DNA of 16,953 bases from a virus (Duplodnaviria; Heunggongvirae; Uroviricota; Caudoviricetes), in IMG/VR virus record IMGVR_UViG_2529293063_000008; one strand, 5' to 3'. This document shows, in pieces, positions 3,343 through 16,953 of the stretch. Numbering within the stretch: position 1 is the first letter of the stretch; every line of letters begins with the position of its first letter. Under the pieces are notes generated by a model, which saw only the letters and a program-made list of their open reading frames with translations, was not told where the DNA came from and did not search any database. The position numbers were made by a program, and so were the translations under genes.

Positions 3343-3352
3343 TTACCCCTCC

Positions 3353-3364
3353 GTGACCAGTCAC
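3353..3364. repeat. Palindrome GTGACCAGTCAC (GTGACYRGTCAC family, copy 1)
   Basis: The same 12-mer occurs at 8592-8603 and as its reverse complement within CCCCGTGACTGGTCACGGGG at 13196-13215. Confidence 0.4.
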
Positions 3365-3687
3365 ACTTTGAGCGCAAGTTTCAGCCTCGTGGTTGTAAGG
3401 TGGCATGAGCCTTCACCATCAAAAATGCATTCTGAAACAGGCATTCTTTGACCACATCGCGGACAAGTAGTAGATAGCTGTTTCTGCAACTCCTTATAGT
3501 TTTTCCTGATCAGCAGTCCGATGACTTCGTTCTCTGAATATGGAACTCGCCCTGGTCTACGCAATACACAAATTTCCCCCAACATACGTAACTCGTCAGG
3601 TTCCAGAATCCAGTCCCGTCTTGATGTGCCTTCCTTCTTCAACCGTTCCCTGCGTCTCCTTTGCCGTTCTGCAGCTGTCAGCGCCAT
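3361..3687 (-). CDS. Small basic protein with C-terminal zinc-ribbon-like CxxC motif (108 aa)
   Basis: ATG at 3687 with SD AGGAGG; N-terminus AERQRRRRERLKKEG is highly basic; C-terminus has CPRCG...C.H. Confidence 0.55.
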   Translation of the reverse strand: MALTAAERQRRRRERLKKEGTSRRDWILEPDELRMLGEICVLRRPGRVPYSENEVIGLLIRKNYKELQKQLSTTCPRCGQRMPVSECIFDGEGSCHLTTTRLKLALKV

Positions 3688-5874: not shown

Positions 5875-6177
5875 TTAAATGGCGTTATTTTCATTTTCTT
5901 GTGCGACCGTGGTCGCACCCTCTCTAATTTCCAGATAACGCTTAATCCAAAGATTTTCTATATGCTTATTACCTGGCTGATTTGATAAATACCAATCGGC
6001 AATTACAGACTGCTTATTACTATCGGGTCGTGTCCTGTAACCGCAAGTTGGACACCAGATGACATATTCATTTCTTACCCCCGAATACCTTAATTCTGGC
6101 TTCGACGGTTTCCTGAACATAACTTGTTTACAAAGGCAGAATGGCACTTCCTGCCCGATGGCGTTTGATGATTTCAC
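5875..6177 (-). CDS. Zinc-finger protein, possibly Lar-family restriction-alleviation protein
   Basis: Two Cys pairs (PFCLC ... CPTCGYRTRP) about 27 aa apart, followed by ADWYLSN, in the pattern I recall for Lar-like proteins. Start set at GTG 6177 (SD GGAG) so that both Cys pairs are included; overlaps the upstream gene by about 50 nt. Confidence 0.4.
   Translation of the reverse strand: MKSSNAIGQEVPFCLCKQVMFRKPSKPELRYSGVRNEYVIWCPTCGYRTRPDSNKQSVIADWYLSNQPGNKHIENLWIKRYLEIREGATTVAQENENNAI
5900..5919. repeat. Centromere-like palindrome, copy 2
   Basis: TGTGCGACCGTGGTCGCACC; core identical to 1606-1625 and 8345-8360. Lies inside coding sequence at the junction of two small genes. Confidence 0.5.
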
Positions 6178-7982: not shown

Positions 7983-10900
7983 ATGACATTAAACGATTTC
8001 TATGCGGATCGCTTTGGCAGCGATCCGTTCTCGCTAATTGAAGCAGCACGGGATGAACTAACCGAGCTGGCACAGATGGCTGGTATCAACTGGCCTGCCT
8101 GTTCCGACAACATCCAACTCAACCCTCGCGGGGGTGTTGAGCGTTACTCTTCATACAATAAAACATCTCCAGAAGCTCTCGAGAAGAGCCTCAAAGGACG
8201 CGTAGAAATTTACTCCCGGCTGGAACACAGCAAAGGGATTGATTACCCGTTCATTAACTTCGTCCATAAAGGCAGCGATGCTGGCTCATGGAGCGGTTTC
8301 TCCTTCCTGTTTTCTGAATATCGCCGTGAGCAACAACGGAATAATGCGACCGTGGTCGCACAACCGGAAGAAGAACGGGCAAGAATAGAACGTCAGGCCG
8401 AAGCACGTCGTCGCCGTGAAGAACAAAAACGAATTAATGACCTGAAAAACAACCAAATTGACCATGAACGTTTGCTGGGATGGCTGGCATTTCACAGCGC
8501 GTGGGAACATGCTCCTGCAGAAGACGGCTCATGGCCATATGCGATTAAAAAAGGTATTCGTGACGTTTTTAATTCGTGTGATGTGCGTCGCGTGACCAGT
8601 CACGACAGCGCAAAATGGAGCAGGGGGCCAACCACGTATATGGCTATCCCTCTGGCTCACCTGGACGGTCGTTACGATGGTCGTATTGTGGGTTGGCAGC
8701 GAATCGACAAACAAGGTGGAAAATACCAGACCAGCGCAGTAACCAGCGGCGATTTCGTCGGTGCCTGCTTTGTTATCGGTGAGCTGAAAGGGGCGCAAAA
8801 CATCGCTGTTACAGAAGGTTTTGCTACTGGTGCATCCATCTGGCTTGCCACGAAAAAAGATAAACGCTTTGACGCTGTGGTTGTCGCTGTATCCGCTAAC
8901 AACATGGTTCATGTTGTGGAACAACTGGTAAACATGTACCCGGCGGCAAAAATCACCTGCGCACTGGATAATGACCGGAAATCTGCCACAGAAGGAAAAG
9001 GGAATACCGGCCTGCGGACTGGCTATGAAATCTTATCGAAATTCAACGATGTCCGCTGCGTCTATCCAACTTTTGAAGACGATCCGCAAATGGAGTGCAG
9101 TGACTTCAACGACCTGCACAAACTACGTGGACTTCGTGAAACAGCACGTCAACTATTTGCAACAGCAAACCGCCTGAAAACTGGTACTGATTTGCTATCT
9201 CTGACGCTCAACCGCCTGAAGACAATTAAGCGGGATAACCGTCGTACTTTTGCCAAAGAGCTGCTGAGAGCGGTGGATATTGGCATGCTAACCTGTCCGG
9301 TTCCTAACAGTCCGTCAGATTTATTTAACATGTTCTGCATCGTTCTGCGTGAAATGGGACTGGAAAATATCTATCGCGCTACGGTAAAAGACCACATTGC
9401 CCGTCGCCTGAATAAAAAGTGCCGTATTGCCCAGGCTCCGCGCTCTTTCAGCGAACGCATAACTGATCCCAATAAACGCCCTCAACATATCACATATAAG
9501 CGTTTTGAAACTTCGGTAATGACCGATGATGTCCTGAAGTACGTGCAATCACTACAGGGGATAGTCATCGTCCGTGCTGGTATGGGTTCCGGCAAATCTA
9601 CTGGATTGTTACGACCGTTAATGCATAGCTCAGAACGTGGTATCTCTGTTGCTCACCGTGTCTCCCTTATTGGCGGCCTGTGGGAAATGATGACAGAAGG
9701 AAAAGGTGTAAAAGCCGATATCCTGCACTATCAGGATCCTGGCTATCAGGAAATAGCTCCATACGCCAGTAAACTGACCATCTGCATAAACTCGATTGTT
9801 AAAAACTGCTGGCAACCGTTGATGCGCCAGCACGACTATTTTGGCTTTGACGAGGCCACACAAGGGCTACGTGCCGTTCTTTCCGGTCGGGCTATGGAAA
9901 ACCCGGTGGCTGTATTCAATACGCTAATTGACGCGCTGGCCAGAACAGAACAACACCCAATCATGGTGGATGCTGATGCGAATGATCTGCTGGTTGACCT
10001 GGCTGAACTGGCTATGAAACGCCGTGAAGAACTAGGTTTACCGGCATGGCTGCAGATCCACGTAATTGAATTACCTGTTGATGTTCGCAACCGCGAAACA
10101 GGTGAGCCAATCCGGGTTTTTTATACAGAAAAAGATCGCATCATGACCGAGGTGGTGAAAGCTGTATCGGATGGCGAAAAAATCATGTTGGCCACCGACA
10201 GCTCCACCTTTGCAGAAGATGTGACAGCCACCCTGAGAATGCATTTTCCTGGTAAGAAATTTCTGTGTGTAAACCAGAAAAACAAACCAGAGCCAGAAGT
10301 TGAAGCATTTACCAATCAACCGAAAAAGATGGTCAAAAAATACGACGGCCTGATTTATAGCCCGTCTATTTCATCCGGCGTGTCGATTGAGCAAAAACAT
10401 TTTGACCGTCATTTCGGCATGTTCTGTGGTGAAGTTGTACCCAGCGACGCAGTGCAAATGCTACGCCGCGACCGTACAGCAAAAGAATTTATTATCGGCT
10501 TTGATAAAGCTCGTGCAAAACGTGAAACTGACCCGCAAAAAATAGAACGAGCATTCGCCCAGGCATTGCTTGCTACCGCAGGTATGAACGGTGAACTGAC
10601 GGATGTCGTTTTCGATGGCGACCGTATATCAATGGGGGTGGCCAATACCGACTTTACCAGGATGAAAATTAAAGCAGCCGCTATTGAAGCGACTGCGCGT
10701 AACGACTACGCCAGCAACATGATCTGCATCATGCACAGCGACGGTTATAAGGTATCGCCGCTGGCCACCGATTATGCTGCGAATGATATCGGTAAAGAGC
10801 TGCGTAAAGAAGCGCGGGATATTGTGTGGGAACAGACACTGGATCTGCATCTCAATACAGAAACTCCACAAGAATCAGAGCGTGAAGAACTGCTAAAAAA

Positions 10901-11978
10901 ACGCGCGCTGACGCTTGAAGAACAGGCAAAACTTGTCCGCTGGGATATTGAAAACGAACTGAAACTACCGGTTGAAGAAGGCACGCTGAAATTCTATTTC
11001 GATGGTGCTCGAGACAAAGTTCGCCGCTATGAAACAATGCTTTTAGATGAGGTAACAGCTCGTCGTTACGACCGGGAAGAAGCAGCCATCAATTTTACCT
11101 ACGCATACCGTCAGGCGGGACAGTGGCAATATTTTGTAGTGACCGCGATGACTCGCGAGCAGGCTGATGATGTCTTTAAAACTAAATTCCCTGGAATAAT
11201 CGATCACAAGGTAAAAGCTACTCCTACTGTTGAAGTCGGGGCGCGCGGTTTCTATGCGCTTAAATCAGCAACTCTCCGGCAGTACTTTATCGACTGCGGT
11301 ATCAACCCTGAGACTATGACCGGCGAGGCGACTCAGGAGCGTCTCAAATTTGCTCGAGATAACCTCATGACAGCCGAACGCCGTGACCTGTTGAATAACG
11401 TTCTGCACATTGGTGGTTTTATGACGCCAAAAGGGAAGCCTAAAGTGCCGGAAGCGTTGTTTAAAAACATTTGCGACTCTCTTGGCCTTAAAACAGGTAA
11501 ACGTCGCGGCAGAGACGGCGATAAGCGTCCAACCTTGCGTTTTGTTGAGCCTGAATCAGCGGCATTTATGCTGGATATTCTTGCTCAGCGTCAGAAAGAT
11601 GGCCTAACCCTGAAAACGCGTAAAGCCGAGAAGACCGCCATCGAAATGGATCGCGATTTGGATCTCAATATATATATGGATGATAAAACGCGATCCACAA
11701 ACGAGCAGGTTCAAAACGCCCCTCATTCAGTAATTTCTGAGGCTTTGGCTGTGTTGCCAGTGGTTGTACCTGAGTCCTGGGCGATGAGTGCGCTTTCCGG
11801 TGAGGAGCTGGCCACTATGTCATCATGGTCATCAGCCAGCATAGCTATGACGTTTGCATCTCTGTACCTCACAGAGTTCATGGATCACTTATCCAGCAAT
11901 GAACTGCGGCGGTTACGTGAATACATTACCGGGAATAGCCCATGCAGCTACGAAGAGCAGGGCGCTTTCTATGGGTAA
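7983..11978 (+). CDS. repA: Multidomain replication protein: primase (TOPRIM) fused to a P-loop helicase/NTPase, N15 RepA-like
   Basis: 1331 aa; TOPRIM-like IAVTEGFATGASIWLA ... ITCALDND; Walker A VRAGMGSGKST; size matches my memory of N15 RepA. Confidence 0.85.
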   Translation: MTLNDFYADRFGSDPFSLIEAARDELTELAQMAGINWPACSDNIQLNPRGGVERYSSYNKTSPEALEKSLKGRVEIYSRLEHSKGIDYPFINFVHKGSDAGSWSGFSFLFSEYRREQQRNNATVVAQPEEERARIERQAEARRRREEQKRINDLKNNQIDHERLLGWLAFHSAWEHAPAEDGSWPYAIKKGIRDVFNSCDVRRVTSHDSAKWSRGPTTYMAIPLAHLDGRYDGRIVGWQRIDKQGGKYQTSAVTSGDFVGACFVIGELKGAQNIAVTEGFATGASIWLATKKDKRFDAVVVAVSANNMVHVVEQLVNMYPAAKITCALDNDRKSATEGKGNTGLRTGYEILSKFNDVRCVYPTFEDDPQMECSDFNDLHKLRGLRETARQLFATANRLKTGTDLLSLTLNRLKTIKRDNRRTFAKELLRAVDIGMLTCPVPNSPSDLFNMFCIVLREMGLENIYRATVKDHIARRLNKKCRIAQAPRSFSERITDPNKRPQHITYKRFETSVMTDDVLKYVQSLQGIVIVRAGMGSGKSTGLLRPLMHSSERGISVAHRVSLIGGLWEMMTEGKGVKADILHYQDPGYQEIAPYASKLTICINSIVKNCWQPLMRQHDYFGFDEATQGLRAVLSGRAMENPVAVFNTLIDALARTEQHPIMVDADANDLLVDLAELAMKRREELGLPAWLQIHVIELPVDVRNRETGEPIRVFYTEKDRIMTEVVKAVSDGEKIMLATDSSTFAEDVTATLRMHFPGKKFLCVNQKNKPEPEVEAFTNQPKKMVKKYDGLIYSPSISSGVSIEQKHFDRHFGMFCGEVVPSDAVQMLRRDRTAKEFIIGFDKARAKRETDPQKIERAFAQALLATAGMNGELTDVVFDGDRISMGVANTDFTRMKIKAAAIEATARNDYASNMICIMHSDGYKVSPLATDYAANDIGKELRKEARDIVWEQTLDLHLNTETPQESEREELLKKRALTLEEQAKLVRWDIENELKLPVEEGTLKFYFDGARDKVRRYETMLLDEVTARRYDREEAAINFTYAYRQAGQWQYFVVTAMTREQADDVFKTKFPGIIDHKVKATPTVEVGARGFYALKSATLRQYFIDCGINPETMTGEATQERLKFARDNLMTAERRDLLNNVLHIGGFMTPKGKPKVPEALFKNICDSLGLKTGKRRGRDGDKRPTLRFVEPESAAFMLDILAQRQKDGLTLKTRKAEKTAIEMDRDLDLNIYMDDKTRSTNEQVQNAPHSVISEALAVLPVVVPESWAMSALSGEELATMSSWSSASIAMTFASLYLTEFMDHLSSNELRRLREYITGNSPCSYEEQGAFYG
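8345..8360. repeat. Centromere-like palindrome, copy 3 (inside repA coding sequence)
   Basis: TGCGACCGTGGTCGCA exact; encodes ...NATVVAQ... within repA. Confidence 0.5.
8592..8603. repeat. Palindrome GTGACCAGTCAC (copy 2, inside repA)
   Basis: Flanked as CGTGACCAGTCACG; same family as 3353-3364 and 13196-13215. Confidence 0.35.
11648..11696. other. Candidate internal replication origin within the 3' part of repA
   Basis: 8-bp inverted repeat GGATCGCG / CGCGATCC (11648-11655, 11689-11696) flanks the AT-rich TCAATATATATATGGATGATAAAA and includes three GATC sites. I recall the N15 ori mapping inside the 3' part of repA. Confidence 0.3.
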
Positions 11979-12909: not shown

Positions 12910-13134
12910 ATGAACTGTAACAAAAATGAAGAAACTCGCCTGGTTTGGACGGTAGTAATCGGAGATAAAAAGGGCGGTGAAGAGCCTCATTTTGATTATT
13001 CTGTGGCTTTGCAGGCTCTCATCCTTGAAGCACAGGGATACCAACAAGAGATGCAGAAGAACCCTCAACTGGAACCTCGACCAATTGGCCTATTCTGCGA
13101 GCGAGTATCAGCGGCGGAACTCCCTGATATCTGA
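12910..13134 (+). CDS. Hypothetical protein (74 aa)
   Basis: ATG 12910 with strong SD AAGGAG 6 nt upstream (longest ORF starts GTG 12895). Confidence 0.5.
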   Translation: MNCNKNEETRLVWTVVIGDKKGGEEPHFDYSVALQALILEAQGYQQEMQKNPQLEPRPIGLFCERVSAAELPDI

Positions 13135-13195
13135 TGCCCTCCAACAGCTGATCAGGTTCTGATCAGTTAGTAAAGCAAACTATAAAAACACCTGT

Positions 13196-13215
13196 CCCCG
13201 TGACTGGTCACGGGG
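13196..13215. repeat. Perfect hairpin-forming palindrome CCCCGTGA-CTGG-TCACGGGG (GTGACYRGTCAC family, copy 3)
   Basis: 8-bp GC-rich arms with a 4-nt loop; lies 20 bp upstream of a candidate promoter for the antisense-RNA/antirepressor operon. Confidence 0.45.
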
Positions 13216-13235
13216 TAAAATGTCTTTTCAAATTA

Positions 13236-13265
13236 TTGACGTGTGCGTCGTTTTGACGGTAAAGT
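13236..13265 (+). promoter_or_regulatory. Candidate sigma70 promoter of the antirepressor (immI-like) operon
   Basis: TTGACG (13236-13241), 18-nt spacer, TAAAGT (13260-13265). Confidence 0.3.
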
Positions 13266-13378
13266 TACTTCGCTGCGGTAAATCCCGTAGCCGGGACTCT
13301 CAACCCCGAAATCCGAACGACGCACAACACGCGCCAGCGTGTTTTTTTGTGTGTATGAGCCTGCGCATATCCGAATTA

Positions 13379-13460
13379 TGGTGGCTCAGGTGGGGCAGCC
13401 GAAAGGCTGGCCGGTGTCGTTTGGGCCGGTGTTGAGAACCCCGCTTGGGCTACCACCCCA
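13379..13460 (+). ncRNA. Candidate c4-type antisense RNA (P1 c4 / N15 CA RNA analogue); boundaries approximate
   Basis: About 80-nt GC-rich segment closed by GGTGG (13380-13384) / CCACC (13453-13457) with internal hairpins. Loop GGTGTTGAGAACCCC (13428-13442) is complementary to ACTCTCAACCCC (13296-13307) and ATTCTCAACTC (13466-13476), which flank it upstream of the icd-like start. Confidence 0.4.
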
Positions 13461-13514
13461 TAGAGATTCTCAACTCTGGTGGTAGCACTGTTTTACCAAA
13501 CAAGAGTGCATACC

Positions 13515-13679
13515 ATGTTCAAATTCAAATTTGCGGCAGTCGTTCGCACAGACAAAAAGTCACACATCCATCATCTTTCCACCATCGCGTCATCTGAACG
13601 GGAAGCTCGTCGCCAGTTCGCCAGCCGGTTTGTCCTGGTATTGTCTGCCCGTATTCCGGTGCGCGAGGTGGCTGCATGA
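13515..13679 (+). CDS. Icd-like small protein (first gene of the antirepressor operon)
   Basis: ATG 13515 (MFKFKFAAVVRTDKKSHIHHLSTIASSEREARRQFASRFVLVLSARIPVREVAA); the longest ORF begins at GTG 13479. Stop overlaps the next start (ATGA). Resemblance to Icd-like proteins is from memory. Confidence 0.5.
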   Translation: MFKFKFAAVVRTDKKSHIHHLSTIASSEREARRQFASRFVLVLSARIPVREVAA

Positions 13680-13909
13680 ATCAGGTAAAAATGAACACTG
13701 TTGGCCTGCTGGAATCGTTGGATGAACGTCTGGCTCAGGTCTATGCGCTTGTGTCATCCGCCCATCGTACAGTCTCCAGCTGTGAGGCGTCGATTTATCT
13801 CTCAGAAGCCGGGAAGCTCCTTCAAATTGCGTGTGAGTTGACACACAAAGCACAGGGGTATTCAGCATCTCTCTCGTCGCAATTGCAGCACAATAAGGAG
13901 GCCAAATGA
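13676..13909 (+). CDS. Hypothetical protein (77 aa), translationally coupled middle gene of the antirepressor operon
   Basis: SD GAGGTGG 6 nt upstream; ATGA overlaps at both ends. Confidence 0.55.
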   Translation: MNQVKMNTVGLLESLDERLAQVYALVSSAHRTVSSCEASIYLSEAGKLLQIACELTHKAQGYSASLSSQLQHNKEAK

Positions 13910-14688
13910 GCGCGTTAGCTGTATTTTCGTTTCAGGAAGAGCATCAGGTTCGTGTAGTGATGATTAACGGCGATCCGTGGTTTGTAGCGGCTGATGTTTG
14001 TAATGCCATCGGGATTATCAATCATCGTGATGCTGTTGGTAAGTTGGATGAAGACGAAAAGGGGGTCGGTTCAACAGACACCCTTGGAGGTAAACAGGGA
14101 GTGACAATTATTAACGAATCCGGCCTCTATACCCTAATCCTCCGCTGCCGTGACGCGGTGAAGCAAGGCACAACAGCTTGGCGGTTTCGCAAATGGGTAA
14201 CGAACGAAGTCTTGCCCTCTATTCGCAAAAATGGAGAGTACGTTTACGTCGAGCCAGAGCCAATGCGAGCAGCAGAGCCGTTGAACTGGAGGCAGAAAGA
14301 GTATCTGCGAGGGCTGATTAACGATATTGCACAAAGTTTTCAATACCGAAATGCCTGGATTAGCGGTGTATGGTTGGCTTTGCGTCGGGCGTGTCGTAAT
14401 CCATCCCCGAACCCCATAACTGTTGATGATTTGCCAGCAATTACGGCAGAACTGCGCCGGATTTTGACGGCTGCTGAGTCGGCATTGGGGAACATGCGCA
14501 CGTATGAACGAGAGTTGTTGCGTGATGTTGTTCGTGGTGGTAGGCGGAGTATGTCGTGTGGTGATTTGCCCATCACCGATATCAACTCTGATCTGGAAAA
14601 GGCGTTACCCGCGCATTTTGAACTGGCAGTTCAAAAACTTGAGCAGTTATCCGCGCAGCTAAAGCCAGCAGAAATCACCAATAAATAG
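13906..14688 (+). CDS. Phage antirepressor with N-terminal Bro-N/AntA-type domain
   Basis: 260 aa; SD AAGGAGG; N-terminal FSFQEEHQVRVVMINGDPWFVAADVCNAIGIINHRDAVGKLDEDEKG...IINESGLYTLILRCR...KWVTNEVLPSIRKNGEY matches the antirepressor signature as I remember it. Confidence 0.8.
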   Translation: MSALAVFSFQEEHQVRVVMINGDPWFVAADVCNAIGIINHRDAVGKLDEDEKGVGSTDTLGGKQGVTIINESGLYTLILRCRDAVKQGTTAWRFRKWVTNEVLPSIRKNGEYVYVEPEPMRAAEPLNWRQKEYLRGLINDIAQSFQYRNAWISGVWLALRRACRNPSPNPITVDDLPAITAELRRILTAAESALGNMRTYERELLRDVVRGGRRSMSCGDLPITDINSDLEKALPAHFELAVQKLEQLSAQLKPAEITNK

Positions 14689-14859: not shown

Positions 14860-16761
14860 TTAACCGAAATATGTCAGCCATGCTAACTGCATTGCTGACA
14901 TGGGGCTGTTTGCACTGCCGGACCACGCATAATTCTGGCCATTATAATGAAACTCAACAACGTATGAGCCATCACCAATATTTCTCACCGGCTTAAATAC
15001 CGGCTTAGATACAGGCGAAGAAGGTGCAGGCGGTTGCTGTTCTTCTACGCTCTCTTCCTCTTCCTCTTCCTCTTCCTCTATCTCAATTTCGTCGTCATCC
15101 AGATCGTCATCCTCTGACAATTCATCCGCCAGTTCAGGTATTGCTTCCAGTTCTTCTTCGTCAGGCATAACGATTTCTGGAGTATCTATTTTCAGTTGCC
15201 ATTGTCCGTTTTCGCCAACAAATTGCCCCAGAGCATCAGCAGCAAATTCCAGGTATCGACTAATCATTGTTGGGCTAAATTTGAACGCTCTTAGAGTGCT
15301 GTTCGTGATTTTTATAGAGGGGTCCTGCTCTACCAGCTGCTTAACTGTGTTATGCAGACGAACCCCGGCATCTCCTCTGGCGAATCCAGGCATTTCGTCA
15401 TCAAGCTGCTGCAATGCTTCCAGCCTGGTATTTTCGTTTCCAGTATTTGGCCTCCATGTCTTTGAGAAGTTGGCCAGCTTGAATTGCTTATAGTGTAATT
15501 GAGTGTTTTCATCGTCATGGCCTAAAATTTCCATAAAGAAAACATCTTCATCTACGTTTTTCCAACGAGGATCTACGCGGAAAAACATTTCATACGCAAT
15601 ACGGGCATAAATAGCACGACTATCTTTATAAACACGGCGGTCATCTTTGAAAAATGATTTAACCCACGGGTTAAAAGCCTTTGCTAATATGGCATTAATA
15701 CGTCCGTTTTCAGAGCGTGTGTCGTTATCTCCATAACCTTTAACGACATCATCAAAATCAGATGCTGCTGGGCATGAGCGAAGTACATTTATTAAATAAA
15801 CAAATGTTTTTGCTTCGCATAATGTATATATTTTTCTGGTTATATCATCAGAAGTTCTTTTTTTAGCTTGGCCTAAAAAATCAACGGTATACTTACCAGA
15901 AACAGTAAATGTACCTTGATACATAATCTCAATCATTCGTCTTCCTGACAATGCAGCAAGTGCAAATGCCAAAGGAGCCATACCTGAACGAGTGTTTAGA
16001 TTATTTAATGTAGCAGGGCTATTTATAATATCGTAAATAGCTTGCATATATTTAGGGTAATCAATGACCACCACGTTACGTTTCTTATTGTGCAGAACGT
16101 CCGCCCATCGTTGCTGGATAGATGCACGTTCGGCAGGGCTTAGTTGAAGATGATAGAGAATCTCATGGTTAACTTTTAGCTGATTCAACTCCTCAAGTAA
16201 GGCAGATCCTTGCTGTAGTAATTTATATAAATAATCGCGCTTATCTTTCCAGTTATCGCTAGTTAAATCAGAAATGGCGAATTGCCACTCTTTATATTTA
16301 TTTGATAATTTCAATAACTTATTATGACTTTTGTTATCGCCAATTCTGATATTAGATAAATCTTCTGATAGAGGGAGAATTAATTTTAATTTTGCCTGTA
16401 AAGCTGACATTCTCTGGCGAATATCGGCAGCAGGTAGAGAAAGCCATGACAATAGCTCCTCATTATATAAAGGATACTTTTCAGATAGGCGATGTATATT
16501 TTTTTCAAAGCTATGATGAAGTTTATCATCAAACCGTTTTCTGGCCCTGCTCATATAGGCATTGAATGTGTTGGCTGTAATTCTTTTTTCTAATCCTTTC
16601 CCCCTAAACTTTCGCTTGTCATTAAATAATGCATTTTTAAATTTTAATGCAACAGCCTTTATTTTTTTTGTTTTCTCCCCTTGAGGACGGTCAGAGTTAT
16701 CTATTGACTCAACATCGCTAACAAGTGAGTTTATTAATTCACCGATTTTTACTTTGCTCAT
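14860..16761 (-). CDS. telN: Protelomerase (telomere resolvase), TelN-like
   Basis: 633 aa; N-terminus MSKVKIGELIN..., length and an acidic Glu/Asp-rich stretch before the C-terminus match my memory of N15 TelN. SD AGGAGAGG. The gene abuts the terminal half-palindrome. Confidence 0.8.
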   Translation of the reverse strand: MSKVKIGELINSLVSDVESIDNSDRPQGEKTKKIKAVALKFKNALFNDKRKFRGKGLEKRITANTFNAYMSRARKRFDDKLHHSFEKNIHRLSEKYPLYNEELLSWLSLPAADIRQRMSALQAKLKLILPLSEDLSNIRIGDNKSHNKLLKLSNKYKEWQFAISDLTSDNWKDKRDYLYKLLQQGSALLEELNQLKVNHEILYHLQLSPAERASIQQRWADVLHNKKRNVVVIDYPKYMQAIYDIINSPATLNNLNTRSGMAPLAFALAALSGRRMIEIMYQGTFTVSGKYTVDFLGQAKKRTSDDITRKIYTLCEAKTFVYLINVLRSCPAASDFDDVVKGYGDNDTRSENGRINAILAKAFNPWVKSFFKDDRRVYKDSRAIYARIAYEMFFRVDPRWKNVDEDVFFMEILGHDDENTQLHYKQFKLANFSKTWRPNTGNENTRLEALQQLDDEMPGFARGDAGVRLHNTVKQLVEQDPSIKITNSTLRAFKFSPTMISRYLEFAADALGQFVGENGQWQLKIDTPEIVMPDEEELEAIPELADELSEDDDLDDDEIEIEEEEEEEEESVEEQQPPAPSSPVSKPVFKPVRNIGDGSYVVEFHYNGQNYAWSGSANSPMSAMQLAWLTYFG

Positions 16762-16924: not shown

Positions 16925-16953
16925 AATCAGCACATAATTACCCATTATACGCG
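16925..16953. other. Half of a telomere-resolution palindrome (telO-like); the window ends at or 1 nt past the dyad centre
   Basis: AATCAGCACATAATTACCCATTATACGCG differs at about 2 positions from the N15 telRL half-site as I remember it (TATCAGCACACAATTGCCCATTATACGCG) and stops in the CG-rich centre. Confidence 0.65.

Follow-up and report, generated by a model that had tools for sequence, protein, structure and literature searches.

The window analyzed here, 16,953 nucleotides of viral DNA (Caudoviricetes; IMG/VR record IMGVR_UViG_2529293063_000008), carries immediately upstream of an icd-like/antirepressor operon a region that we read, with a probability of roughly 0.88, as a module controlling secondary immunity ("anti-immunity," of the immA/immI type) in an N15-like linear plasmid prophage. 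Antisense control of the C4 type had been proposed for this position in an initial annotation, and the proposal is supported by an Rfam covariance-model match, by orthology with N15, by the identity of the downstream genes, and by compensatory change among relatives. The C4 locus is an ordinary, previously unannotated member of a well-characterized RNA family; because the system is of a textbook type, exemplified by P1 C4, P4 CI, and N15 CA, its presence here is to be expected.

The window represents a linear plasmid prophage of the N15 kind; across the RNA region its DNA is 99.5% identical to that of Escherichia phage YDC107_1 and 80.6% identical to that of N15. The RNA module sits between the repA operon (repA, 7983–11978) and telN (14860–16761, minus strand), the position that immA takes in N15, in an order that matches both N15 and YDC107_1. 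Judged by the 80.6% DNA identity and the gene order repA...immA-telN, N15 immA/cA is the orthologue of this region, in agreement with the analogy to the N15 CA RNA that had been drawn at the outset. All 23 of the 23 matches in Escherichia coli genomes lie on plasmids. No inverted repeat was recovered at the end of the window, since the sequence holds only one half of the telomere palindrome. Downstream of the RNA module, the products of the operon are close to those of N15: the Icd-like protein is 94.4% identical to N15 Icd, the AntA-like protein 59% identical to gp31, and the AntB-like protein, which matches the PHROGs "anti-repressor Ant" families, 74% identical to gp30. The features of the module and operon are collected in Table 1.

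Table 1. Elements of the immunity region and the operon it precedes (window coordinates)
Feature	Position	Strand	Basis or remark
Palindrome CCCCGTGACTGGTCACGGGG = CCCCGTGAC-TG-GTCACGGGG	13196-13215	.	~20 nt upstream of the -35 hexamer
Promoter-like site (Pa equivalent), TTGACG / 18-nt spacer / TAAAGT	13236-13265	+	Predicted start ~13272
IsrK/seqA-type leader RNA	13272-13348	+	Rfam isrK RF01394, match at 13272-13347, 54.9 bits vs gathering score 50
A1, upstream target UCUCAAC	13298-13304	+	Complementary to a'; 7 bp
B1, upstream target CCGAACGAC	13313-13321	+	Complementary to b'; 9 bp (13312-13323 with G-U pairs)
Intrinsic terminator (Ta / P4 t1 equivalent), ACACGC-GCCA-GCGUGU + U run	13326-13348	+	Terminator scan
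C4/CA-type antisense RNA gene	13374-13460	+	Rfam C4 RF01695, 71.8 bits, E = 1.3e-12
b', antisense segment GUCGUUUGG, loop of C4 hairpin 2	13416-13424	+	Complementary to B1 and B2; co-varies with both
a', antisense segment GUUGAGAA, single-stranded junction of C4 multibranch loop	13431-13438	+	Complementary to A1 and A2
Downstream hairpin, 13449-13457/13478-13486 + 13462-13465/13474-13477, A2 in loop	13449-13486	+	Relatives and fold
A2, downstream target UUCUCAAC	13467-13474	+	Complementary to a'; 8 bp
Proposed alternative hairpin, 13481-13489/13505-13514	13481-13514	+	Would cover part of the Shine-Dalgarno and bases before the AUG
B2, downstream target CCAAAC	13496-13501	+	Complementary to b'; directly 5' of the icd Shine-Dalgarno
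icd-like gene, 54 aa	13515-13679	+	NCBIfam NF033153 phage_ICD_like, 67 bits; Shine-Dalgarno ~13503-13506
antA-like gene, 77 aa	13676-13909	+	phrog_10889 "anti-repressor"; start overlaps icd stop (ATGA)
antB-like Bro-N antirepressor-family gene, 260 aa	13906-14688	+	Pfam Bro-N 1.6e-20; start overlaps antA stop

At 71.8 bits, the window match to the C4 family runs over the full-length model (1–87) and lies well above the gathering score of 45; experimentally characterized C4-type RNAs score similarly (P1, 68.8; P4, 74.9; N15, 78.8 bits). Alignment with the annotated ends of P1 C4 predicts a mature RNA of 78 nt, 13380–13457, with a 3' ACC overhang, which folds at −48.7 kcal/mol (z = −4.9) into a minimum-energy structure equal to the consensus. 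The GGTGG/CCACC stem put forward in the initial annotation does close the segment, but these bases are only part of a 17-bp helix (13379–13395 with 13439–13455). Our comparative set comprises 40 distinct relatives, to which all structure and pairing counts refer. Within it the RNA structure as a whole is paired to 97.7%, and 13 of its pairs have changed on both sides; the C4 closing stem is 100% and the two hairpins 99.5–100% paired, with compensatory changes that in hairpin 1 reach four of the five pairs. The leader as a whole (13265–13530) folds at −111.2 kcal/mol (z = −5.8). The description "tRNA-like" applies only to the acceptor-like stem of C4 with its ACC overhang; ARAGORN finds no tRNA gene in the window.

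The C4 RNA carries two antisense segments, each complementary to one site upstream and one site downstream. The a pairings are established by three-way compensatory change across the 40 relatives, and b' likewise changes together with B1 and B2. The first segment had been described as a loop complementary to two flanking sites; both pairings hold, but a' proves to be a single-stranded junction and not a hairpin loop, and the GG and CCCC that flank it lie within helices. The a'-A1 helix is paired in 90.9% of cells with compensatory change at six of its seven pairs, and a'-A2 in 92.4% with compensatory change at six of eight positions, its seven central pairs being 100% paired and its variable positions changed on both sides in 17–21 of the 40 sequences. 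Across seven specificity classes a' changes together with A1 and A2, and pairing is retained in 40 of 40 relatives; a register-free test gives at least 7 nt for both a'/A1 and a'/A2 in every one. When the flanks were shuffled 20,000 times, a 7-nt Watson–Crick match arose upstream in 1.0% of cases, an 8-nt match downstream in 0.1%, and both together in none. TCTCAAC also occurs elsewhere in the window (2613 and 2914), at chance frequency and antisense to local genes.

The b set, which the initial annotation lacked, comprises a 12-nt b'-B1 run in the window, counting G-U pairs (duplex energy, −18.9 kcal/mol), and a 6-bp b'-B2 duplex of about −9 kcal/mol that stops 1–2 nt before the Shine-Dalgarno. 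A column-based count puts the b'-B1 and b'-B2 helices at only 65–70% paired, because the loops carry indels, and the register-free test was used instead: b'/B1 pairing extends to at least 8 nt in 40 of 40 relatives, across more than 10 sequence classes, and b'/B2 pairing to at least 6 nt in all 38 relatives that cover the site. In those 38, B2 abuts or covers the Shine-Dalgarno, and in many relatives the pairing runs over GGAG, as in AAACGGAG and UACCAAACGGAGUU. Cognate duplexes at the a sites are 5–10 kcal/mol more stable than noncognate ones; such energies separate the a classes well and the G/U-rich b classes poorly. Taken together, the comparative set offers unusually clean natural compensatory-mutation evidence for all four RNA–RNA contacts, and the co-evolution of antisense and target, in at least seven a-classes and more than 10 b-classes, points to repression in trans and to immunity specificity. 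Some relatives also carry extra, target-less C4 genes bearing the a-addresses of other phages.

Upstream of C4 lies a second recognizable RNA, which together with its terminator had likewise escaped the initial annotation. Its isrK score clears the gathering threshold by a modest margin, where N15, P4, and phiKO2 reach 62.4, 60.8, and 66.8 bits (RF01394). The leader consists of hairpin 1 (13272–13291), hairpin 2 (13292–13308) with A1 in its loop, a linker bearing B1, and the intrinsic terminator; hairpin 1 is 100% paired with five of seven pairs changed on both sides, and the terminator is 100% paired and almost invariant, its N15 homologue being annotated as a putative rho-independent terminator. 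On its own, the leader folds at minimum energy into all three hairpins; in the minimum-energy fold of the full-length leader, A1 and B1 pair in cis with a' and b'. Like other isrK-type RNAs, this one has a putative promoter and a Rho-independent terminator of its own, both conserved. The promoter-like site is the sole sigma-70-type match in 13100–13700, its −35 hexamer and TAnnnT −10 are kept in relatives, and the isrK model match begins at 13272, near the start predicted from it. The tandem arrangement of isrK and C4 also appears by Rfam in N15, P4, phiKO2, PhiR46_1, and a Stx1 phage; P1 carries C4 plus c4-a1b1.

The C4-type RNAs of P1 and P4 are processed by RNase P, and termination takes place at N15 Ta and P4 t1. 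In the window, the constitutive-looking promoter would start the leader near 13272, and most transcripts should end at the terminator, yielding a short IsrK/seqA-like RNA with A1 and B1. Read-through transcripts would carry the C4/CA RNA, from which an RNase P cut at the 5' end, by analogy with P1 and P4, would release a stable species of ~78 nt with a long closing stem, two hairpins, and an ACC 3' overhang. Its exposed segments, a' and b', would each engage one upstream and one downstream site. At A2 and B2, this would set an RNA duplex directly against the icd Shine-Dalgarno and block icd translation. Since the stop and start codons of icd, antA, and antB overlap, the loss of icd translation would silence antA and antB as well, through lost translational coupling and early termination of transcription. 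Duplexes formed at A1 and B1, immediately ahead of the terminator, would most likely raise termination there and might thereby let the RNA limit its own synthesis, as is reported at P4 t1. The analysis establishes the family membership of the RNA, its secondary structure, the four pairings and their co-evolution, the terminator, and the identity of the downstream genes; it is from homology that we infer the processing, the stability of the RNA, its repression in trans, and the weighting of translational block against termination. N15 antirepressor expression is under negative control of the small CA RNA (PMC10732415); P1/P7 c4 RNA blocks ant translation through pairing around the ribosome-binding site (PMC12197685); and in P4, pairing of CI RNA with seqA and seqC leads to termination, IsrK being a structural homologue of seqA (PMC4825925; PMC3632133).

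The phrase "block icd-ant translation" in the initial annotation describes the P1 model, whereas the N15 and P4 literature stresses premature transcription termination, and both may be compatible with the sequence. According to Ravin et al. 1999 and Briani et al. 2000, transcription termination is the main mode of action in N15 and P4. A control by termination only, of the P4/N15 type, in which C4 pairs with nascent A1/B1 and A2/B2 and provokes premature termination with no meaningful direct ribosome block, is an alternative to which we give somewhat less than even odds. The strong, nearly invariant intrinsic terminator begins only 5 nt past B1, and the premature termination reportedly found for N15 CA RNA by Ravin et al. 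1999 counts in the same direction. So does the layout around the ribosome-binding site. The downstream target had been placed in the loop of a 9-bp stem just ahead of that site; A2 does occupy the loop, but, ending 28 nt before the Shine-Dalgarno (13503–13506), it is not directly ahead of it, and it is B2, spaced 29 nt from A2, that adjoins. Because B2 offers only 6 bp that fall short of the Shine-Dalgarno and A2 lies 28 nt upstream, direct occlusion should be weaker than it is in P1 and in those relatives where the pairing covers GGAG. P4 CI RNA, moreover, is described as terminating transcription via seqA and seqC (PMC4825925). Against a control without ribosome block stands the position of B2, which abuts or covers the Shine-Dalgarno in 38 relatives and matches P1 b2, annotated as repressing icd-ant translation. 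Nor is any terminator-like structure conserved in the stretch from C4 to icd, where N15 lacks the U run that follows 13486. The two mechanisms are compatible with each other.

Downstream of C4, two hairpins bear on a different possibility. The sequences quoted in the initial annotation were found where it had placed them (CCCCGTGACTGGTCACGGGG, 13196–13215; GGTGTTGAGAACCCC, 13428–13442; ACTCTCAACCCC, 13296–13307; TTCTCAAC, 13467–13474; GCTACCACC, 13449–13457; ATG, 13515), save that the 3' arm of the downstream stem, GGTGGTAGC, occupies 13478–13486 rather than 13479–13487, one base off. This hairpin, which the unprocessed leader adopts at minimum energy, is 98.3% paired with five pairs changed on both sides. 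Its 9-bp stem and the C4 closing stem are mutually exclusive, because both use 13449–13455, a competition that had gone unremarked. With C4 removed, the mRNA takes the alternative hairpin at the icd start as its minimum-energy fold; among relatives this hairpin is 87.8% paired, against 20–48% for slid controls, with five pairs changed on both sides.

In Gifsy-1, the short RNA homologous to this leader acts as an activator and not as a passive target (PMC4825925). Transferred to the window, the short RNA 13272–13348 would act in trans, its A1 and B1 engaging a' and b' of the read-through transcript or of free C4, with the leader remodeled or C4 titrated and icd-ant translation switched on. The leader would then toggle between two states, the two small RNAs acting on it in opposite directions. 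We consider activation of this kind doubtful, despite its experimental precedent (PMC4825925). The isrK match above the gathering score speaks for it, as does the full leader fold, which pairs A1/B1 with a'/b' in cis like the Gifsy-1 "structure A" (PMC4825925), and the hairpin closing the icd start competes with the downstream stem, with moderate covariation support. However, Gifsy-1 has no icd, its target orf45 overlaps the C4-like RNA, and the equivalent open reading frame here is conserved in neither frame nor length; the genetically defined product of the N15 locus is, furthermore, a repressor RNA (PMC10732415). A more speculative extension, which we hold only tentatively, would make the leader a self-contained conformational switch that free C4 and the short IsrK-like RNA push opposite ways, with a and b forming a combinatorial specificity code among N15-type phages. 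The arm 13478–13489 would then pair either with 13449–13457 or with the icd start region, 13505–13514. Folding or excision of C4 would remove 13449–13455 and close the start region in cis, and pairing of A1/B1 with a'/b' in cis would keep C4 from folding and leave the start region open. The window itself joins the a-address of N15 to a b-address that N15 does not have.

It is highly improbable that the region simply encodes small proteins and that the RNA complementarities are incidental: deposited annotations do place there a 71-aa open reading frame (13220–13435; "hypothetical protein" in YDC107_1) that matches phrog_34583, the N15 "cA secondary immunity repressor" CDS, and the RefSeq "ash family protein," and Gifsy-1 orf45, in a homologous position, is reported as translated (PMC4825925), but among the 40 relatives the reading frame opened by the conserved C4 AUG (13378) varies in length between 8 and more than 53 codons and is shifted past the b' loop, substitutions keep base pairs and not codons, the 71-aa frame runs across promoter, leader, and a terminator, and Pfam and NCBIfam searches give no family match for the small-protein reading frames. 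For the C4 region itself, a protein-coding reading was rejected on that variability in length and frame. The labels "hypothetical protein," "secondary immunity repressor," and "ash family protein" that this RNA region bears in deposited records call for correction.

The palindrome upstream of the promoter may lie outside the RNA module. It is kept in close relatives and missing from more distant ones that still have the module, and its changes among relatives are not compensatory; its core, CGTGACNNGTCACG, is repeated at 8591–8604 and 3352–3365. An intrinsic terminator or RNA hairpin was considered and set aside, as the terminator scan leaves the palindrome uncalled and substitutions in relatives break the pairing; a SopB centromere site was rejected too, the N15 IR consensus being different (GTGCGACCNNGGTCGCAC). 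The window does have sites of the SopB IR type, but at 1607, 5901, and 8344.

On the immunity-module reading that we favor, the C4 element would decide the expression of a prophage antirepressor and a cell-division inhibitor, and would therefore bear on the stability of lysogeny for a linear plasmid prophage of E. coli. The shuffling of specificity segments among N15-type phages also predicts which prophages can and cannot cross-repress.

Among known systems, Gifsy-1 of Salmonella (IsrK - STnc1160 - orf45 - anrP) resembles the window in having, ahead of an antirepressor gene, a short leader RNA that is terminated and then a C4-like RNA, which is processed in Gifsy-1 (PMC4825925) and predicted to be so here, and pairing in cis of mid-IsrK with downstream RNA (PMC4825925) resembles the minimum-energy fold of the window. 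It differs in that the short RNA activates translation in trans, in the absence of icd, and in the translated orf45 that overlaps its C4-like RNA (PMC4825925). P4 (seqA - t1 - CI RNA - seqC) likewise places an isrK-type leader (60.8 bits) before a C4-type RNA (74.9 bits), with an Icd-like reading frame downstream whose product is 50% identical to that of the window, and its RNA, released from the leader by processing, pairs with flanking sites both upstream and downstream (PMC4825925), as in the model favored here. In P4, however, the RNA controls the replication (alpha) operon, not an antirepressor directed against another repressor, CI is the only immunity factor, and the reported mechanism is transcription termination.

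The immI region of P1/P7 follows the same order as the window—promoter, a1, b1, terminator-like hairpin, C4, a2, b2, icd, ant—with a 29-nt a2-to-b2 spacing in both P1 and the window and with b2/B2 at the ribosome-binding site of icd. In P1 as in the window, a2 is presented by a hairpin that borrows the 3' strand of the C4 stem, and the RNAs are of similar size (77 nt in P1, 78 nt predicted here) and C4 score (68.8 and 71.8 bits). The C1 operator Oc4 governs the P1 promoters, whereas no equivalent operator is evident in the window; the P1 a' (CUGUCAA) and b' (CACUAAC) are different; and P1 b2 overlaps the Shine-Dalgarno where B2 of the window stops just before it. The antirepressor proteins belong to different families, and BLASTP finds no similarity between the window and P1 Icd proteins.

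The immA region of N15 (CA RNA, icd-antA-antB; Ravin, Svarchevsky and Deho 1999) has the same promoter, terminator, C4 fold, and downstream hairpin as the window. An AUG inside the N15 C4 is in frame with icd and is the source of the old cA/gp32 CDS, while in the window that reading frame stops at 13485. The a', A1, and A2 segments are identical in the two, but the b set of N15 consists of b' CUUCUUGU, B1 ACAAGAAG, and B2 UACAAGA, against GUCGUUUGG, CCGAACGAC, and CCAAAC in the window. N15 and the window therefore share one of two address segments, and cross-repression between them may be partial.

The control region ahead of the icd-like gene is an unannotated, ordinary member of a curated RNA family and the orthologue of the locus studied in N15. 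An Rfam search over the whole window at gathering thresholds gave exactly two matches: C4 antisense RNA, as the initial annotation had proposed, and isrK directly upstream. This tandem also occurs in N15, P4, phiKO2, PhiR46_1 and a Stx1 phage according to Rfam. In P1, Rfam matches C4 (68.8 bits) and a further family, 'a1, b1 targets of C4'; judged by the Rfam scores of known phages, the C4 RNA of the window scores like experimentally characterised members. The promoter is the only sigma-70-like match within 13100-13700 and predicts a start near 13272, coinciding with the beginning of the isrK model. The proposed layout, C4 upstream of icd-like and antirepressor genes, holds, but it omitted a terminator between B1 and C4, at a site whose N15 homologue is annotated as a putative rho-independent terminator.

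Features of the control module and its surroundings (a' and b', antisense segments within C4; A1 and B1, upstream targets; A2 and B2, downstream targets)
Feature	Position	Details
RepA-type gene	7983-11978	1331 aa
Palindrome core copies	13199-13212, 8591-8604, 3352-3365
Sigma-70-like promoter	13236-13265	TTGACG, 18 nt, TAAAGT
isrK, RF01394	13272-13347	54.9 bits vs gathering score 50
A1	13298-13304
B1, CCGAACGAC	13313-13321	12 nt of b' pairing with G-U pairs, -18.9 kcal/mol
Intrinsic terminator, isrK 3' end	13326-13343	stem, then U run
C4, RF01695	13374-13460	plus strand; 71.8 bits vs gathering score 45; E = 1.3e-12; full-length model match
C4 closing stem	13379-13395 with 13439-13455	17 bp
C4 hairpin 1	13396-13409
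C4 hairpin 2	13410-13430	11-nt loop
b', GUCGUUUGG	13416-13424	loop of hairpin 2
a', GUUGAGAA	13431-13438	single-stranded junction
A2	13467-13474
B2, CCAAAC	13496-13501	directly 5' of icd Shine-Dalgarno
icd Shine-Dalgarno	13503-13506
icd-like gene	13515-13679	54 aa; NF033153, 67 bits; 94.4% identity to N15 Icd
antA-like gene	13676-13909	77 aa; 59% to N15 gp31
antB-like Bro-N gene	13906-14688	260 aa; 74% to N15 gp30
Protelomerase gene	14860-16761	minus strand

The structure of C4 comes out the same in the Rfam alignment and in minimum-energy folding. From an alignment to P1 C4, whose ends are annotated, the mature RNA would be 78 nt long (13380-13457; -48.7 kcal/mol, z = -4.9) and carry a 3' ACC overhang. 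Relatives were fetched by exact matching of a 16-mer taken from the 5' end of C4, yielding 74 viral contig loci, about 60 of them true homologues of the whole leader; with phage records, the homologous loci gave 40 distinct sequences. Across these, 97.7% of the local structure is paired (slid-partner controls, 33-45%), and 13 pairs have changed on both sides.

The claim that one loop segment is complementary to two flanking sites is borne out by these sequences, since a' co-varies with both A1 and A2. Pairing stands at 90.9% for the a'-A1 duplex, where 6 of 7 positions show compensatory change; for a'-A2 it is 92.4%, reaching 100% at the seven central pairs, and at variable positions both sides differ in 17-21 of the 40 sequences. 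Seven a-classes exist, each with its own matching A1 and A2: GUUGAGAA in this window and N15, and UUGCGAA, UUCCUAC, UUCUCAC, GUUCCAA, UUGUCAC and ACGCCAA among relatives. Cognate duplexes are more stable than non-cognate ones by 5-10 kcal/mol, and shuffled window flanks produced both matches together in 0 of 20000 trials. Chance complementarity is ruled out by the covariation.

A second set of contacts, overlooked initially, joins b' to B1 and B2. Pairing of at least 8 nt with B1 and at least 6 nt with B2 is kept in every relative, across more than 10 different sequences, and at B2 extends over GGAG in many. The a and b addresses assort independently among the 40 leaders (b' CUUCGUUU, for instance, is seen alongside a' GUUGAGA, UUGCGAA and UUCUCAC), a pattern suggesting that the two specificity determinants recombine. 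The one specific feature of the window's module is an N15 a-address combined with a non-N15 b-address, so cross-repression with N15 may be incomplete.

Extra tandem C4 genes, absent from the window, occur at two other loci: L041 (7310-7397 and 7409-7496; Rfam C4, 64.3 and 66.4 bits) and L033 (reverse strand, ~590-400). Each pair immediately precedes the palindrome and promoter of a resident isrK-C4-icd module, without an isrK leader or target sites of its own. Their a' segments, UUCUCAC and UUCCUAC, are classes of other N15-type phages, the resident a' being GUUGAGAA in L041 and GUUCCAA in L033; the extra RNAs may cross-repress antirepressor operons of competing prophages.

The anticipated operon is present downstream, with Icd-like, AntA-like and Bro-N AntB-like genes whose stop and start codons overlap at both junctions. 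A protein-coding C4 region was rejected: the ORF from the conserved AUG varies from 8 to >53 codons among relatives and changes frame. Deposited protein genes overlie the module at 13220-13435 and 13378-13485; a 71-aa 'hypothetical protein' covers promoter, leader, terminator and C4 in Escherichia phage YDC107_1, N15 has an old 'cA secondary immunity repressor' CDS, and 'ash family protein' is the RefSeq (PGAP) name in E. coli plasmids, where the module is found in 17 of 5426 complete genomes. These look like annotation artefacts. In the Stx1a-converting phage Stx1_14744, isrK (1100-1176) and C4 (1201-1288) lie within a 'phage antirepressor Ant' CDS (872-1894) whose start has probably been placed too far upstream.

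The window belongs to an N15-like linear plasmid prophage. Segment 13150-13950 is 99.5% identical to YDC107_1 (genus Ravinvirus) and, over its first 639 bases, 80.6% identical to N15. The window's end (16927-16953), adjoining the protelomerase gene, reads ...ATCAGCACATAATTACCCATTATACGCG, resembling exactly one half of the N15 telRL telomere palindrome; if so, the contig stops where the linear plasmid ends in its hairpin. In the YDC107_1 record the immA region appears two times, in inverted orientation, probably through assembly read-through of the telomere hairpin. SopB centromere inverted repeats of the N15 type (GTGCGACC-GT-GGTCGCAC) are scattered through the window at 1607-1624, 5901-5918 and 8344-8361, as IR1-IR4 are in N15; two of the three are exact and the other has a single mismatch. 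Upstream of the promoter lies the palindrome core CGTGAC-NN-GTCACG, which has an exact copy within repA and an intergenic copy that differs by one mismatch (6 matches at up to 2 mismatches, 0.36 expected); it does not match the SopB consensus and may be a protein-binding site.

RNase P acts on the precursors of both C4 and CI. Biere et al. (1992) reportedly found that icd translation is what P1 C4 blocks, Rho-dependent polarity on ant being a secondary effect, and Briani et al. (2000) reportedly showed autoregulation in P4, where CI RNA increases termination at t1, the intrinsic terminator separating seqA from cI. The module's anatomy and co-evolution are directly visible; C4 processing and repression we infer, and in the most likely reading excised C4 RNA would pair at A2/B2 and turn off icd translation, with antA and antB silenced too via coupling and premature termination, while pairing at A1/B1 would increase termination at 13326-13348 and limit its own production. 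Judged by sequence, either translational block or termination could dominate. In P1/P7, C4 pairs around the RBS, blocks ant expression and determines heteroimmunity (PMC12197685), and in N15 a small CA RNA negatively controls the antirepressor (PMC10732415); in P4, pairing of the processed CI RNA to both seqA and seqC causes premature termination, and IsrK is a structural homologue of seqA (PMC4825925; PMC3632133).

In the minimum-energy fold of the unprocessed leader, A1/B1 pair with a'/b' in cis and the 9-bp downstream stem forms. That stem, noted in the initial annotation, is real (98.3% paired, 5 pairs changed on both sides), but its clash with the C4 closing stem went unseen: the two are mutually exclusive because both use 13449-13455. 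All sequences quoted there were correctly placed except the 3' arm, GGTGGTAGC, which lies one base earlier, at 13478-13486. In the predicted fold without C4, this arm is released and pairs with 13505-13514, so that the Shine-Dalgarno sequence is partly covered, as are the bases that precede the AUG; among relatives 87.8% of the helix is paired (slid controls, 20-48%), and 5 of its pairs have changed on both sides. The modelled folds would be compatible with the short leader RNA acting as an activator.

The annotated P1 elements a1, b1, c4, a2 and b2 follow the same order as A1-B1, b'-a' and A2-B2 here, and the A2-to-B2 spacing of 29 nt equals that annotated for P1 a2-b2. The alternative leader folds resemble the two-structure model for which Gifsy-1 IsrK offers experimental evidence.
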